DNA of 64,000 nucleotides. Origin: Escherichia coli (GTDB taxonomy: Bacteria > Pseudomonadota > Gammaproteobacteria > Enterobacterales > Enterobacteriaceae). Positions within the stretch are counted from its first letter, which is position 1. Every line of letters starts with the position of its first letter. The stretch lies in NCBI RefSeq assembly GCF_003019035.1, contig NZ_CP027447.1. The stretch is one strand, 5' to 3'. Below are positions 14,208-63,990 of the stretch, one piece after another. The position numbers and the translations under genes are program-made. The notes under the pieces were generated by a model. It had not been told where the DNA came from. It did not search any database and saw only the letters and a list, made by a program, of their open reading frames with translations.

Positions 14208-14237
14208 AATGCCGCCGATGGCGGCATTGCTTTTTTT
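14208..14237 (+). terminator. Rho-independent terminator after ydfZ
   Basis: aatgccgcc gatg gcggcatt hairpin followed by seven T. Confidence 0.6.
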
Positions 14238-15696
14238 ACTTCACGGAATATTTCGCCACGGTCGCTTTCGCACCATGCGCTAATAAAGACAAGTACGCTT
14301 CCGTCACTTTTGCAGTAAACAAGCTATTGTCTGGCAAATCATCACCAAAGATCGCCTTAATCGCCAGCAATGACTGGACGCGCGCTTTCCCTTCGGCACT
14401 ACTTTGTACAGCCTTCTGAATAACAGGTAACAGTGGGTCACTGATTTCTATCGGATTTCCCTGTTCATCAACACCACCGACATAACGCATCCAACCTGCG
14501 ACGCCCAGCGCCAGCAGATCGAACTTGCTGTCATGCGCCAGATGCCAGCGAACAGAATCCAACATCCGCTGTGGCAATTTCTGGCTGCCATCCATCGCAA
14601 TCTGCCAGGTTCGATGACGTAGCGCCGGGTTGCTATAGCGTTCAATTAATCGGTTAGCGTAATCTTGCAAATCAACGCCCTGCACTTTCAGCGTCGGCGC
14701 TTGTTCCTGCAACATCAAGGCATACGCTGCATGACGATAATGTTCATCTTCCATGCAGTCATTAATGTGCTGATATCCGGCAAGATAACCCAGATACGCC
14801 AGGAATGAATGACTGCCGTTGAGCATGCGCAACTTCATCTCTTCATAAGGCAGCACATCACTAACCAGTTCGGCTCCCGCTTTTTCCCATTCCGGACGTC
14901 CGGCAACAAAGTTATCTTCTATTACCCACTGGCGGAAAGGTTCACAGGCAACGCCAGCAGGATCGCGCACACCGGTAAGTTGTTCGATTTTCGCCAGCGT
15001 ATCCTCTGTCACTGCGGGCACAATACGGTCCACCATTGTTGATGGGAAAGTCACGTTTTCTTCGATCCATTGTGCCAGTTTTACATCAACAGCTTGCGCG
15101 TAGGAAGTGACAACGTCACGCATAACATGACCGTTTTCTGGCATGTTGTCACATGACATGACGGTAAATGCGGGAAGTCCTGCCGCTTTACGGCGAGCCA
15201 GCGCCTCAACAATCACCCCTGTTGCAGTTTTCGGCTGGTGGGGATTTTGTAAGTCGGCAACGACCATCGGGTGATCGAGCATTAACTGTCCGGTCGCCGG
15301 AGAGTGGAAATACCCTTTTTCGGTGATTGTCAGAGAGACAATCGCGATTTGCGGTTCACACATCGCAGCCAACACGGTTTCTAAGCCATCAATCTGTACG
15401 TGCAAGGCTTTTTTAACGACGCCAACGACGCGAGCCGTCCACGCATCGGCCGACATTTCCGCAACGGTATAAAGATTATCTTGCTGTTGTAAATCGGCAA
15501 TTTGCTGTTCGCCGCCGATTAAATTGACCTCATAATATCCCCAGTCACTGAAATGTTCCGTAGCAAGAATATCGGCATACACACCCTGATGCGCACGGTG
15601 AAATGCACCAAAGCCTAAATGAACAATTCTTGGGGCCAGGTTATTACGATCATAAACAGGGAGCGTCGCTTTTGCTGATAACAAATTATTTCCCAT
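14236..15696 (-). CDS. ydfI: Mannitol/mannonate dehydrogenase-family oxidoreductase YdfI
   Basis: 486 aa; Rossmann N-terminus ([12 protein letters not shown]) typical of long-chain mannitol dehydrogenases; gene order matches K-12 ydfI. Confidence 0.8.
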
Positions 15697-15784
15697 AACA
15701 ATTCCTTAAATATAAATATGGCAAGCTACATGTTTTGTTATATGAATAAAAATCCCCTCTCCGGTAAGAGAAGGGATGGAGGAT

Positions 15785-17068
15785 TTAAAGACTTCTGGAA
15801 GGTTGCGCAGCTCTGACAACATGCGGTTGATCTTCCGCAGCGTCTTCCAGCGCACTTAAATCACGGTCTTTCACTTCTGGCATTTTCAGCGCAGAAATTA
15901 AACCAATCACTGAATATGCCATGATCATAATTGCGATCGGATACCAGGATTCCGTCATGGTGCAGAAAATACCCGCCAGGATAGGACCAAAACCGGAAGC
16001 GATAAGACCACCAATTTCTTTAGAAATGGCCATCCGGGTAAAGCGGTTTTTACAGCCGAACATTTCTGCCATGGTAATGTTTTCCAGAGCAAATAATCCA
16101 AGCACCGCACAGTTATGAATCACAATCAGTGCAACCATAATGGTGCTCGGGGCATAGCTTTTATCTACGATGATAGAAAGCATTGGCCATGCCAGCACAA
16201 TCGCAGAGGTATTCATAATAATATACGGGATCCGGCGACCAATTTTATCGGATAACCAACCAAGGAACGGAATGGTCATAAAGCCGAGAATCGAACTGAT
16301 CATCAATGCATCTGTTGGAATTGCTTTGTTAAACAATAACGTCTGCACTAAATAGCCTGCAAGGAAAGTCTGAATTAAACCTGAGTTACCAGCCTGACCA
16401 AAACGCAGCCCTGTTGCCAGCCAGAAGGATTTGCTCTGGAACATGCTACCAGCAGGTGCAGGTTTTGCTGTAGGTTGGTTGCTGTCGTTAACCTTCTCAA
16501 AGACCGGGCTTTCTTTCAGATTCATACGCAACCAGATAGCAAAGACCATCACGACAACGCTCGCCAGGAACGGTATACGCCATCCCCACGCCAACAGTTC
16601 CTCTTTACTGAGAATGAAGAACATAAAGGCCCAGATTGCCGTTGCGCTCAAGGTTCCGCAGTTAGTCCCCATAGCAACAAATGAGGAGATAATTCCGCGC
16701 TTACCTTTTGGCGCATATTCCGCCAGCATCGTACCGGCACCGGAAATTTCCGCGCCTGCCCCCAGCCCCTGAATAATACGCAGCGTCACCAGCAAAATTG
16801 GCGCAAACACACCAATTTGTGCATAGGTCGGCAGCACACCAATTAAGGTGGTACAGATCCCCATCATGGTGATGGTAATAAAGAGCACTTTTTTACGCCC
16901 TATTCTGTCGCCCATTTTGCCGAAAATAAATGCTCCGACAATACGTGCCACATAACCTGCACCATAGGTTCCCATTGCCAGAATTAACGCCATTGCCGTT
17001 GACGATTCAGGAAAAAATATTTCATGAAAAACTAACGCTGCGCCGAGCGAATATAACTGGAAATCCAT
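15785..17068 (-). pseudogene. ydfJ: MFS (metabolite:H+ symporter family) transporter YdfJ, 5'-truncated at the prophage junction
   Basis: 427 aa ORF begins MDFQLYSLGAALVFHEIFFP, which aligns to the conserved (E)WFDFxxYG segment at the start of TM1 in ProP/KgtP-type transporters, so roughly 25-45 N-terminal residues are missing; an in-frame stop lies two codons upstream and prophage DNA follows. Confidence 0.75.
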
Positions 17069-17671
17069 AATTCACAGGTGTTTTTTCCCATCCTGTGGTT
17101 TCCTTGGCGTTTTCTAGGTTTTTTCAGATAGTTGCATTTTTTAAAAAGCATCCTAAGTTCGATCTCAGTGTCTATCTGGGGCCTATTTCTGTCCCATATA
17201 TGCCCCAAAAAAACTCCCCAACAGATAAGTAGTTTTTTCATGGATTTATGCGTAAAATCAAGAACGGCTGGAAATCATTCAATACTCACACTATCGAAAA
17301 ATTTACCAGCCAACCGCAGCACGTTCTTGCATAAGGCGTGTCTGCGGTTTTTCAACTATTCAGATACATCACTCCCATCACATTCATTCCTCCGCATCAA
17401 AGGCATATAGGCTATATCACCTTGATATTTTTCTTTTTCAGATAAAAACTGTTATCTATGTATACTTTTAAACCCAATCCGTGTAGAGTCTCTGCATAAG
17501 ATAGTTTGCAGTTGCCGCTTCAGCTTGCGCCATAAACCGCCTGATTTTTGCTGCCACCTGTTAGCATTCCTGTATACCTGAAACGACAATGTTTATCTAC
17601 GAACTTTAAGAACACCCAAGATAAAAATTGTCAACTATATCATATATAACACATTACTAATTCGAGGCTAT

Positions 17672-18403: not shown

Positions 18404-18994
18404 ATGTCTCGAATTTTTGCTTACTGTCGGATATCAACGCTGGATCAGACCATCGAAAATCAACGCCGGGAAATCGAAAGTGCAGGTTTTAAAATCAAAC
18501 CTCAGCAAATAATCGAAGAACACATTAGCGGCTCAGCAGCAACCAGTGAGCGTCCTGGTTTTAACCGGTTGCTTGCTCGCCTGAAATGTGGTGATCAATT
18601 GATTGTGACAAAACTGGATCGCCTTGGTTGTAATGCAATGGATATCAGGAAAACAGTGGAACAACTGACCGAAACAGGTATCAGAGTGCATTGCTTAGCA
18701 TTGGGGGGCATTGACCTGACCAGTCCAACAGGAAAAATGATGATGCACGTAATTTCAGCAGTCGCTGAATTTGAACGAGACCTTTTACTTGAACGCACTC
18801 ATTCCGGGATAGTAAGAGCCCGCGGCGCAGGGAAACGTTTTGGTCGACCACCTGTGTTAAATGAAGAACAGAAACAGGTGGTATTCGAACGAATTAAGTC
18901 AGGTGTAAGTATAAGTGCCATTGCCCGGGAATTCAAAACCTCGCGGCAAACCATTTTAAGAGCCAAAGCAAAACTTCAGACACCTGATATATAA
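18404..18994 (+). CDS. pinQ: Serine recombinase / DNA invertase Pin (Gin/Hin/Cin family)
   Basis: 196 aa; N-terminal catalytic serine motif YCRISTLDQ and C-terminal HTH; matches recalled PinQ/PinE. Confidence 0.9.
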
Positions 18995-50346: not shown

Positions 50347-50634
50347 TCAGAGAATGCGTTTGACCGCCTCGCTATATACTTCCGAGCGTTCTCTTTTCCC
50401 AACAGAAATCACGAAAACGACAACTTTCTCGTCTATAACCTGGTATACAAGGCGATAGCCTGAAGACCGGAGCTTAATCTTGTAACAATCAGGCATACCA
50501 CGGAGCTTGTTTGCTTCAATCCGGGGTGACTCAAGTACTTCAACCAGCTTCTTTTTCAACTGTTCACGTACCGTCGAGCCCAGCTTTCGCCATTCCTTTA
50601 GTGCCCGCTCGTCAAAATCCAGAAAATACGCCAT
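50347..50634 (-). CDS. relE: Type II toxin RelE (mRNA interferase)
   Basis: 95 aa; matches recalled RelE. Confidence 0.9.
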   Translation of the reverse strand: MAYFLDFDERALKEWRKLGSTVREQLKKKLVEVLESPRIEANKLRGMPDCYKIKLRSSGYRLVYQVIDEKVVVFVISVGKRERSEVYSEAVKRIL

Positions 50635-50873
50635 CAGAGTTCATCCAGCGTCACACGTACTGGCTTAGGATTACGAAGCCGTTCTTTCACTATCTCCACA
50701 AGTTCAGCATCTTCATCACTCAGGAGTGTCTGTTTGAACGGCAAGCGTTCATTGTCAGCGATATACTCGAGCATGAGACGAAGCGCTTCAGAAGGAGTTA
50801 CACCCATTTTTTCAAGCGCGGCGTAAGAACGCGCTTTAAGTTCATCGTCAATACGCAGGTTAATGCTACCCAT
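50634..50873 (-). CDS. relB: Type II antitoxin RelB
   Basis: 79 aa; matches recalled RelB; stop overlaps the relE start. Confidence 0.9.
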   Translation of the reverse strand: MGSINLRIDDELKARSYAALEKMGVTPSEALRLMLEYIADNERLPFKQTLLSDEDAELVEIVKERLRNPKPVRVTLDEL

Positions 50874-51825: not shown

Positions 51826-53674
51826 AGTTAACATTACAAGATATAAGTAATGGACGCACTCCCAATTAGTCTATTTAAATCGCCACGAGTTTAACTGACA
51901 ACCCATGATCAATTATGAATTGCAACTATTTCTGTAGTCACTTTTGTGGGGACAGTCCACAAAACTGCCAACTTCCGCTTCTTGCTCTTAGCGGACATTA
52001 GCATAGGCTATTTACCATAACGCCTCATTACGCGCACCGCCCAGACTGACTCAGCGCGTTTCTGGCATATCCCCGGTAAAACAAGTAACAAACCACCCGA
52101 AAATGAACACCAGAAACGCGACTTAAGAATCTACCCTATGAATGGATATGCACTCAACCGAATCGATCTTGGTTTCAATCTTTTTTATCGGGATCAGGCT
52201 TCTTTTTAGGTAACTTCGGGGGCTTAACTTGCTGATGACTTTGCGTTCGGCGCGTAAGCCAGGGATGGTCAGCTTTAGGTTTAACATAGTATTTTGAGCG
52301 TAAATCAATACGGGCATTATCCACTCGTTCATGGACACTCTTTTCATCATCCAGTGGTATAGGCTCCGGGCCATCAACATACTTTTCCCAGCCCAGCGCT
52401 TTCCCGTCATACAGAACGTTAATTTCACCGTCAAAGTTCTCGCATACAGTAACAACCGAATGCCTAAGTCGATATCCCCGGCCCTCACTGCGTACCTGAA
52501 ACGCACTGCTTTTGTACTGGAAAGTGAGATTTTTAGACAGAACGCGCTTCGCCTGTAGGCTGAAGATATAACCCAGTTCCTCTTCAGAATGGTGCACATC
52601 AAGATGAGCATTATCAGTAGTACGAGGCGACGTAGCGAACCGGTTGTTATAGGCTTCAATAAAGGTCGGCAACCATGCATTTGCTGTTTCAATATCACTG
52701 ATATTCTGAAGCCGCATTTCTTTGACCAGCCTGTCCTGTAGTGTCTGATTGGCGCGCTCTACCCGCCCTTTTGCCTGCGGGCTGTTGGCATGGATTGGCT
52801 CGATGCCCAGTGTCTTTATCGCACGAGTGAACTGGGTCAGCTCACCTTCCCGCTCTGGGTTATTTACCCTGAATATACTGTGTCTATCAGAGTAGAGAGC
52901 GAGCGGTACGCCATGATCATTAAGGTAACCCCGGAGGGTTTCCATGTAAGCCCGGGTTGTTTCAGCAGGCACAAAACGCAACGCCATCAACGCACTGGTG
53001 GCATCATCAATGAAAACGATCAGTGTACATCTGGGGCCTCGATTTTCAAACCAGTCATGAGGTGAGCCATCAATCTGGATCAGTTCACCGTAAGATGGTC
53101 GTCGCATGCGGCGTTGATATATACGGGCAATTTTACGACGGCGTTCACGCCATAACCCCTCTTCTATCATCCACTTTCTGAGAGTTTCAACGGATAAAGA
53201 TAAACCGTGTATCTCGCGCAATTTTTCGCACGCAAACGTAGGTCCAAAATCAGCGTAACGGCCTTTGAGGAGTGAAATTACTGTTGCTCTGAATTCAGTA
53301 GAAAAGGAATTATTAGGACGCTTTCCACGTCGGTGGGAAACCAGACCAGAAGGCCCTTCATTTCTATACCGTTGCACCAGACGTTTAACCTGCCGAATAG
53401 AAATGCCAATGCGTGCCGCAGCTTGTTCCTGAATAATCTGAAGTCGGTGGAGTTCCTTATGACTCATCGTAACAGTCTCTTTGATCATGAAAAATCCCCC
53501 AGAGAATTGTCTGGGGACATTTTAGAATGGTTCAAAGGGGACATTACAGCTTGGTGTTAACAATAGCCTGCTTCTCCGTGCCTTTCGGCACGTAAGAGGC
53601 TAACCTACATGTGTCTAGCATGAAATTGGCCTCAGATTAATGTTAAGCGTCTTGCAGGACGCGTAATGTTAACT
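51826..53674. mobile_element. Insertion sequence (family uncertain, IS481/ISNCY-like); boundaries tentative
   Basis: Single 437 aa DDE transposase ORF flanked by a 12-bp perfect inverted repeat agttaacattac (51826-51837) / gtaatgttaact (53663-53674); no clear target-site duplication seen. Confidence 0.35.
52175..53488 (-). CDS. DDE transposase with N-terminal HTH and rve-type integrase core
   Basis: 437 aa; HTH near N-terminus (IGISIRQVKRLVQRY); catalytic-triad candidates in IQIDGS, YSDRHSIF and KGRVERANQTL. Confidence 0.8.
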   Translation of the reverse strand: MIKETVTMSHKELHRLQIIQEQAAARIGISIRQVKRLVQRYRNEGPSGLVSHRRGKRPNNSFSTEFRATVISLLKGRYADFGPTFACEKLREIHGLSLSVETLRKWMIEEGLWRERRRKIARIYQRRMRRPSYGELIQIDGSPHDWFENRGPRCTLIVFIDDATSALMALRFVPAETTRAYMETLRGYLNDHGVPLALYSDRHSIFRVNNPEREGELTQFTRAIKTLGIEPIHANSPQAKGRVERANQTLQDRLVKEMRLQNISDIETANAWLPTFIEAYNNRFATSPRTTDNAHLDVHHSEEELGYIFSLQAKRVLSKNLTFQYKSSAFQVRSEGRGYRLRHSVVTVCENFDGEINVLYDGKALGWEKYVDGPEPIPLDDEKSVHERVDNARIDLRSKYYVKPKADHPWLTRRTQSHQQVKPPKLPKKKPDPDKKD

Positions 53675-62423: not shown

Positions 62424-62675
62424 ATGAGCGAAGTAATCATGATTGTCTCTCCCGGCAAATGGGTATCCGAAGAGCAGTTAATTGCGCTGAAAGGAATAAA
62501 AAAAGGTACGTTAAAAAAGGCCCGGGAAAAATCGTTTATGGAAGGAAGGGAATATAAGCATGTCGCTCATGACGGTATGCCATGGGATAACAGTCCATGC
62601 TTTTACAACCTGGAAGAAATTGATCGCTGGATTGAGCGCCAGGCATCAGCGAGACCAAGACGTCATCTTACTTGA
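62424..62675 (+). CDS. Putative excisionase / small DNA-binding protein
   Basis: 83 aa basic protein immediately upstream of the integrase gene; no strong motif. Confidence 0.4.
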   Translation: MSEVIMIVSPGKWVSEEQLIALKGIKKGTLKKAREKSFMEGREYKHVAHDGMPWDNSPCFYNLEEIDRWIERQASARPRRHLT

Positions 62676-62694: not shown

Positions 62695-63990
62695 ATGAGA
62701 GAAGTTGAAATGAAATATCCGACAGGCGTGGAAAACCATGGAGGGAAATTACGTATCTGGTTTGTTTATAAAGACGTAAGAGTCAGGGAAAATCTGGGGG
62801 TTCCTGACACAGCAAAAAACAGGCGCGTTGCAGGTGAACTACGCTCCTCTGTTTGTTACGCAATAAAAACTGGTGTTTTCGACTATGCAAAACAGTTTCC
62901 CTCCTCACGCTATCTGGAAAAATTTGGTGAGGCCCGACAAGATTTAACCATAAAAGAACTGGCTGAAAAATTTCTGGCACTGAAAGAAACTGAAGTCGCC
63001 AAAACATCACTCAACACATACCGTGCCGTCATCAAAAATATCCTGAGCATAATCGGTGAAAAAAATCTTGCCTCATCGATTAATAAAGAAAAATTACTGG
63101 AGGTTCGTAAAGAGTTACTGACTGGATACCAGATCCCCAAAAGTAACTATATTGTTACACAACCAGGGAGATCGGCTGTAACTGTAAATAATTACATGAC
63201 AAATCTTAACGCCGTGTTCCAGTTTGGTGTTGATAACGGTTACCTGGCAGATAATCCGTTTAAGGGGATCTCGCCATTAAAGGAATCAAGAACCATTCCG
63301 GATCCTCTTTCGCGGGAAGAATTTATCCGTCTTATCGATGCGTGCAGAAATCAGCAAGCAAAAAATTTATGGTGTGTTTCTGTTTATACTGGAGTTCGCC
63401 CTGGTGAGCTGTGTGCACTTGGATGGGAGGACATAGATCTGAAAAATGGAACAATGATGATCAGGAGAAATTTAGCAAAAGACCGTTTCACGGTACCAAA
63501 AACACAGGCGGGAACCAATCGGGTCATTCATCTTATTAAGCCAGCAATCGACGCTCTCCGGAGTCAGATGACATTAACGAGACTGAGCAAAGAGCATATC
63601 ATTGATGTTCACCTCAGAGAGTATGGCAGAACAGAAAAACAAAAATGCACCTTTGTTTTTCAACCTGAAGTGTCAGCGAGAGTAAAAAATTATGGTGACC
63701 ATTTTACCGTTGACTCAATAAGGCAGATGTGGGACGCAGCGATAAAACGTGCCGGACTCCGCCATCGAAAATCATATCAGTCGAGACATACTTATGCCTG
63801 CTGGTCGCTGACAGCTGGTGCTAACCCGGCATTTATAGCAAACCAGATGGGCCATGCAGATGCGCAAATGGTATTTCAGGTATACGGAAAATGGATGTCT
63901 GAAAACAATAATGCACAGGTAGCTTTGTTAAATACACAGTTAAGCGAGTTTGCCCCAACCATGCCCCATAACGAAGCAATGAAAAATTAA
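62695..63990 (+). CDS. Tyrosine site-specific integrase (lambda Int family)
   Basis: 431 aa; C-terminal catalytic region with the conserved arginine, the HxxR box and the tyrosine nucleophile (RHTYACWSLTAGANPAFIANQMGHADAQMVFQVYGKWM); true start may be the internal MKYPTGVENHGG. Confidence 0.85.
   Translation: MREVEMKYPTGVENHGGKLRIWFVYKDVRVRENLGVPDTAKNRRVAGELRSSVCYAIKTGVFDYAKQFPSSRYLEKFGEARQDLTIKELAEKFLALKETEVAKTSLNTYRAVIKNILSIIGEKNLASSINKEKLLEVRKELLTGYQIPKSNYIVTQPGRSAVTVNNYMTNLNAVFQFGVDNGYLADNPFKGISPLKESRTIPDPLSREEFIRLIDACRNQQAKNLWCVSVYTGVRPGELCALGWEDIDLKNGTMMIRRNLAKDRFTVPKTQAGTNRVIHLIKPAIDALRSQMTLTRLSKEHIIDVHLREYGRTEKQKCTFVFQPEVSARVKNYGDHFTVDSIRQMWDAAIKRAGLRHRKSYQSRHTYACWSLTAGANPAFIANQMGHADAQMVFQVYGKWMSENNNAQVALLNTQLSEFAPTMPHNEAMKN

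Follow-up and report, generated by a model that had tools for sequence, protein, structure and literature searches.

The stretch of Escherichia coli DNA analysed here (64,000 nt; the window) contains an open reading frame for the transporter YdfJ that begins exactly where phage DNA ends. This raises the question of whether the frame has its native start or is the broken end of a gene interrupted by a prophage and, if the latter, what is left of the transporter. On its host side, the window holds the E. coli chromosomal genes dcp, ydfG, rspR, ydfZ and ydfI, after which comes the ORF in question, ydfJ' (positions 15785-17068, minus strand). It comprises the 3' part of an MHS-family MFS transporter gene (codons 29-455 and the stop). 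Read from the internal Met29, the ORF in the window starts with MDFQLYSLGAAL and has a product of 427 aa. All 1284 of its 1284 nt are the same as in the matching part of the intact allele from the prophage-free locus L002.

Direct reading of the junction on the minus strand gives CAC CTG TGA ATT ATG GAT TTC, in which the segment TGA ATT ATG spans positions 17074-17066. The TGA (17072-17074, minus strand) belongs to the phage arm, is in frame and lies two codons 5' of the ATG, as stated in the original prediction, which was made from the letters of the window; its presence excludes a phage-YdfJ fusion protein. The same prediction described the ~700 bp upstream of the ORF as AT-rich phage DNA. 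This description is correct in composition, as GC content is 31-41% between about 17000 and 18350 compared with 43-53% inside ydfJ, but not in length, since the AT-rich stretch extends over about 1.3 kb. According to the annotation of near-identical genomes, it carries ynfT, ydfK and pinQ. A mechanically called ORF of 69 aa (17032-17241, minus strand) also crosses the junction, running in another frame from the phage arm through the attachment core into ydfJ'. It is probably a meaningless chimera of host and phage sequences made by integration. Translational coupling of ydfJ' through this chimeric ORF was considered and rejected, because the ORF is out of frame and stops 37 nt 3' of the ATG.

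The intact gene was examined in L002 (NZ_CM142671.1), where ydfJ is 1368 bp long and encodes 455 aa. This protein begins with MTIEKHERSTKDLVKAAVSGWLGTALEF and continues as MDFQLYS..., thus having 28 N-terminal residues more than the product of the window ORF. Orthologues in Citrobacter, Enterobacter, Lelliottia, Leclercia, Superficieibacter and others are 454-460 aa long and cover 97-100% of the 455-aa query; a native start at MDFQLYS, the outcome that would have spoken against a truncation, is therefore absent. In an exhaustive search using cluster representatives, distant MHS relatives (30-40% identity) were found to align from query residues 7-20 on. Because orthologues and distant relatives both align across them, the 28 missing residues are, on the alignment evidence, part of the conserved family core, and a strain-specific extension is ruled out.

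Together with the 5' stub and the five-way attachment site alignment described below, the 455-aa L002 locus and the orthologue lengths refute the reading in which the 427-aa form is native, and the 455-aa form found elsewhere results from an over-extended annotation or represents another allele. That reading is suggested by the older K-12 annotation and by the current K-12 RefSeq record, which keeps b1543 as a CDS of 427 aa and not as a pseudogene. It would have to accommodate conservation of the 28 upstream codons across genera and among distant MHS relatives, the phage attP arm with its in-frame stop that precedes the ORF in the window, and the presence of the missing codons at the other end of the prophage. 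We assign it a negligible probability. In three related genomes the corresponding gene carries the PGAP label [quoted passage not shown]. Start calls differ among gene callers, and clusters of 427 aa and of 398 aa both exist.

The missing 5' part was expected to lie beyond the integrase and outside the window, and this is indeed where it was located, only 28 nt past the window end. The genome closest to the window is that of GF131 (NZ_CP172134.1), with 99.9% identity over window positions 15000-39999. The last 200 bases of the window are found in it exactly, and its integrase body has a SNP. In GF131, a second copy of the attachment core occupies window-equivalent positions 64028-64038, starting 28 nt past the end of the window, and it is followed by the ydfJ 5' stub and then by rspB and rspA. 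The stub encodes MTIEKHERSTKDLVKAAVSGWLGTALEFMDF, after which the phage arm contributes the five residues KSHAC before a stop is reached. Strains cq9 and 26561 have this arrangement at the integrase end as well, and the 5' fragment is present in genomes whose integrase end is 100% identical to that of the window over 2.5 kb. The core is therefore present in identical form at both junctions, at 17060-17070 in the window and at the equivalent of 64028-64038 in GF131 and cq9, the flanks of which match the window.

To delimit the core, five sequences were aligned: the empty attB, the window junction, an integrase-side junction and two free-phage attP sites. The integrase-side junction was taken from a genome whose integrase end is 100% identical to that of the window over 2.5 kb. 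The alignment displays the classical four-way att pattern, in which an 11-bp core, GAAATCCATAA, is common to attB, attP and both junctions. There is a single copy of it in the window, at 17060-17070, which holds the ATG of Met29, the codon of Asp30 and two bases of the Phe31 codon, while positions 17071-17100 consist of phage arm only. The original prediction had guessed the core at 17069-17100, which is off by about 10 nt; the actual core overlaps the first three codons of the ORF.

The core was joined to 400 nt of flanking sequence from the integrase side and to another 400 nt from the phage arm in the window, which gave a reconstructed attP of 811 nt. Four free phages, PhiR42_1 (from ECOR13), mEp460_ev081, HannyBb and Tritos, contain this sequence contiguously at 100% coverage, with an identity of 98.8-99.9%. 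The two prophage ends are thus joined at the core in the free phage. The order exo-xis-int-attP-ydfK-pin is the same in all four, and their integrase, attP core and both arms match the window. Unlike the integrated element in the window, these four are replicating or packaged genomes, and the likeness covers the int-attP region. Directly past the core, an inverted repeat CACAGG(N13)CCTGTG was noticed at 17072-17098 (plus strand), which folds modestly better than shuffled sequences (z = -2.2). In free phage genomes, the repeat closely follows int on the other side of attP, a placement comparable to that of lambda sib/tI.

Annotation of near-identical genomes, Pfam matches and the free-phage attP delimit a lambdoid prophage of the Qin/mEp460 type, which fills the window from 17071 to 64000 and continues to about 64027. 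Its total length is about 47 kb, and the free phage genomes measure 45-49 kb. Genes of the prophage are ynfT, ydfK, pinQ, tail-fibre, tail, head and lysis genes, relBE, an immunity region, exonuclease, xis and int; integrase, exonuclease and invertase were identified by Pfam. The tyrosine integrase and the excisionase are located at one end of the prophage, and both are intact in the window. The integrase (62695-63990, plus strand; PGAP start at window-equivalent 62710) is composed of Arm DNA-binding and Phage_integrase domains and ends 10 bases before the window does. The excisionase (62424-62675, plus strand) corresponds to the excisionase family protein WP_000005552.1 annotated at the equivalent position.

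A closely related known case is K-12 ydfJ (b1543) with the cryptic prophage Qin (Kim), which has host gene, breakpoint and 11-bp core in common with the window. The K-12 feature "cryptic prophage Qin" begins at the first base of GAAATCCATAA, and the right-arm genes ynfT, ydfK and pinQ, as well as the truncation by 28 codons, are also shared (PMC6379469). K-12 Qin is a remnant of 20.5 kb, the annotated features of which include neither an intact integrase nor virion genes, whereas the element in the window is roughly 47 kb long and has tail, head and lysis genes, xis and int, in addition to an ISNCY insertion. The window prophage hence looks like a near-complete relative of K-12 Qin.

Three further features of the prophage can be mentioned. 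The ORF at 52175-53488 (minus strand, 437 aa) matches an ISNCY-family transposase model with 456 bits (cut-off 250) and has the appearance of an IS inserted into the early/immunity region; no clear terminal inverted repeats were detected around it. A relE/relB toxin-antitoxin pair lies at 50347-50873 (minus strand), and comparison of translations with annotation indicates that K-12 Qin has one too. A serine invertase of the pinQ type (18404-18994, plus strand; Resolvase and HTH_7 domains) adjoins the tail-fibre genes, a neighbourhood suggestive of an invertible tail-fibre segment.

The consequences for the transporter were assessed at the level of profile, family alignment and model. Residue 2 of the ORF (Asp) falls at position 40 of the 500-position NCBIfam ProP profile, and the intact protein aligns to this profile from its residue 12. 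Alignment of 90 family sequences defines the TM1 motif as G23 (89/90), E27 (87/90), [W/Y/F]28, [Y/M/F]29, D30 (86/90) and F31 (80/90). Placement of the ORF start at the E-W-F-D-F motif of TM1, as originally proposed, agrees with these results, the start being at motif position 29 with G23 and E27 absent. Position 29 is Met in only eight of the 90 sequences, so that having a start codon at the junction is peculiar to the YdfJ clade.

A search for a solved structure of a close YdfJ relative returned only distant MFS matches (phosphate transporters and SV2A; E about 1e-5), and TM1 was therefore placed with the aid of AlphaFold2, which modelled intact YdfJ with a mean pLDDT of 93.8 and a pTM of 0.91. 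In the model, helix 1 comprises residues 10-45. With 28 codons gone, the predicted protein has no cytoplasmic tail, and of the 36 helix-1 residues 19 are lost, leaving a remnant of 17 residues (29-45) headed by Met-Asp. The transporter thus lacks its N-terminus and the first part of TM1, in line with the original proposal. Like the MHS transporters ProP, ShiA and those similar to KgtP, intact YdfJ matches TIGR00883 and has the TM1 motif G-x3-E-x-x-D-F, and its model is rich in helices, consistent with a 12-helix MFS protein; the copy in the window differs from these transporters in the absence of the first half of TM1. The window copy reaches 453.5 bits against TIGR00883 (profile positions 7-400), compared with 462.9 bits (positions 1-400) for the intact allele. 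The truncated copy is consequently above the family cut-off of 443.45, but does not have a complete TM1 with G-x3-E-[WYF]-[YMF]-D-F. YdfJ itself is referred to here as a putative sugar-acid transporter.

Expression of the gene has to be viewed in the context of its neighbours. In L002, a gap of 57 bp separates the rspB stop from the ydfJ start, and rspA is on the far side of rspB. A consensus scan of this native gap revealed no promoter-like or terminator-like motif; although a weak negative, this would agree with ydfJ being transcribed together with rspAB. The rspA promoter is repressed by RspR, and in K-12 rspR and rspAB lie on opposite sides of Qin (PMC8249747). In the prophage arm of the window, promoter-like sites on the ydfJ strand were absent within about 770 bp upstream of the ORF, the nearest matches being at that distance or farther away, which is likewise a weak negative of a consensus scan, and no Shine-Dalgarno-like sequence was observed in the 12 nt before the ATG (CACCTGTGAATT). 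We infer that expression of ydfJ' would be lost. In an RNA-seq study, ydfJ was among the genes responding to DicC overexpression, and therefore some transcript exists. Literature searches, within the collection covered, yielded no usable functional data on YdfJ or its truncated product. They also yielded neither a usable link of L-gulonate or mannonate to rspA, rspB, ydfI and ydfJ nor data on ydfI-ydfJ co-occurrence.

We explain the locus by integration of a Qin/mEp460-type prophage in ydfJ, with junctions and truncation as reconstructed above and with a useful product most likely absent, and we put the probability of this explanation at roughly 93%. A temperate lambdoid phage of this type would have entered the chromosomal ydfJ by means of its own tyrosine integrase, recombining at the 11-bp core within ydfJ codons 28-31. 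Of the two resulting pieces, the 427 codons of the 3' part would remain at the junction distal to int (15785-17068 in the window), while a 5' stub of 31 codons, comprised of 28 unique codons and the duplicated core, would be left at the int-proximal junction, adjoining rspB-rspA. The 3' piece would read as an ORF only through the chance occurrence of Met29 at the junction, and it would be cut off from the rspA-rspB side, where the RspR-repressed rspA promoter sits. Because of this separation, and because half of TM1 is lost together with Gly23 and Glu27, the product, devoid of the tail and of 19 of the 36 helix-1 residues, would most likely neither be made in useful amounts nor form a working transporter. 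While the insertion junctions, the att core, the extent of truncation and the structural loss are demonstrated, the loss of ydfJ' function is the most likely consequence suggested by them, and the original wording "probably non-functional" is reasonable. With both xis and int intact, ydfJ would be expected to be restored in full by precise excision.

Occupation of this site is common. A probe of 401 bp centred on the intact junction was used to survey 5426 complete E. coli genomes. The intact ydfJ-rspB junction is contiguous in 2007 of them, and in most others the probe splits into two half-matches with the break at the core; the uninterrupted junction is thus missing in about 62% of complete genomes. 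The ydfJ'-ynfT-ydfK junction of the window type was detected in 1985 genomes, and other phage arms are present at the same breakpoint, for example in SE11 and O157 strains. Qin has been reported in 48% of 638 strains surveyed, and a 2019 review states that it removes the ydfJ promoter and 28 codons (PMC6379469). According to the genome papers of E. coli W and SE11, Qin or a lambda-like prophage is inserted at ydfJ or at ydfJ-rspB (PMC3032704, PMC2608844). The insertion of Qin in ydfJ and the truncation by 28 codons are accordingly published and present in standard annotation, and nothing in them is new. With regard to annotation, the 427-aa "YdfJ" of most E. coli genomes is a fragment truncated by a prophage, the native protein having 455 aa. 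Furthermore, a putative sugar-acid cluster rspA-rspB-ydfJ(-ydfI) is split in most sequenced strains, K-12 included, which bears on studies of rsp genes and RspR done in K-12.

Disrupted alleles do not show signs of decay. Nine alleles were compared over the retained 427 codons, five of them disrupted (window, L001, L003, L004, L007) and four intact (L002, L011-L013). Pairwise dN/dS was 0.00-0.03 for every pair and no higher for disrupted alleles than between intact ones, in a small sample with shared ancestry in which divergence may predate the insertions. No frameshift or stop was found in any of the nine. Between K-12 and SE11, ydfJ' differs at 12 nucleotides and at no amino acid. Such low dN/dS values would also be expected if integrations were recent or recurrent and if disrupted alleles recombined with intact ones. 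The other possibility is that truncated YdfJ, or ydfJ as a reversible target, is still under selection, either through a useful 427-aa product or through frequent excision and re-integration of Qin-type phages, toggling a sugar-acid uptake module formed by rspAB-ydfJ. We regard this as unlikely; if true, continued selection would explain why disrupted alleles remain undecayed despite interruption of the junction in about 62% of genomes.

The first of these two forms assumes that a fortuitous promoter in the prophage arm, together with Met29, yields a 427-aa product which still transports, so that the insertion rewires regulation. An intact ORF with an ATG exactly at the junction, the undecayed disrupted alleles, the TIGR00883 score above cut-off, the CDS status in K-12 RefSeq and the transcript shifts on DicC induction are all compatible with it. 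The product would, however, have to work without 19 of the 36 TM1 residues and without G23 and E27, and with its N-terminus and Asp30 placed inside the membrane. Its expression would require a promoter more distant than about 770 bp and translation without a Shine-Dalgarno-like sequence, and gene callers are split on its start, as the 427-aa and 398-aa clusters illustrate. A working product of this kind is, in our estimation, quite improbable.

In the second form, the prophage would serve as a reversible switch ("active lysogeny"), with Int/Xis excision restoring ydfJ and rejoining it to rspAB under some condition. Position of the core inside the coding sequence means that precise excision regenerates attB and the intact gene, and int and xis are intact in the window; the occupation of the site in about 62% of complete genomes, with no decay of the gene, can be accommodated as well. 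Nevertheless, no evidence of condition-dependent excision was found, Qin of K-12 is fixed and devoid of int function, and integration of lambdoid elements into coding genes with duplication of the core is common in cases that have no switch role, such as icd and ttcA (PMC6379469). We thus judge a switch to be very improbable, and prefer simple disruption of ydfJ by the prophage.

The two cases just cited can be compared with the insertion in ydfJ. As in the window, e14 in icd and Rac in ttcA combine a tyrosine integrase with a short core that lies in a host ORF and is duplicated (PMC6379469). Element e14 carries a replacement 3' end, by which icd stays functional, and Rac alters only the N-terminus of TtcA (PMC6379469). 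In contrast, the phage arm in the window supplies a stop codon and no replacement 5' end.

In addition, a terminator-like hairpin with an 11-bp stem and a U run was observed directly 3' of the ydfJ stop (15747-15777, minus strand; -16.4 kcal/mol, z = -3.48), and the same hairpin is present in the prophage-free L002 locus. Downstream of it, ydfI (14236-15696, minus strand) is intact and encodes a dehydrogenase of the fructuronate reductase family (NF011611, 653.8 bits, cutoff 603). Because of the strong hairpin after the ydfJ stop, ydfI is probably not simply co-transcribed with ydfJ and may be transcribed alone.
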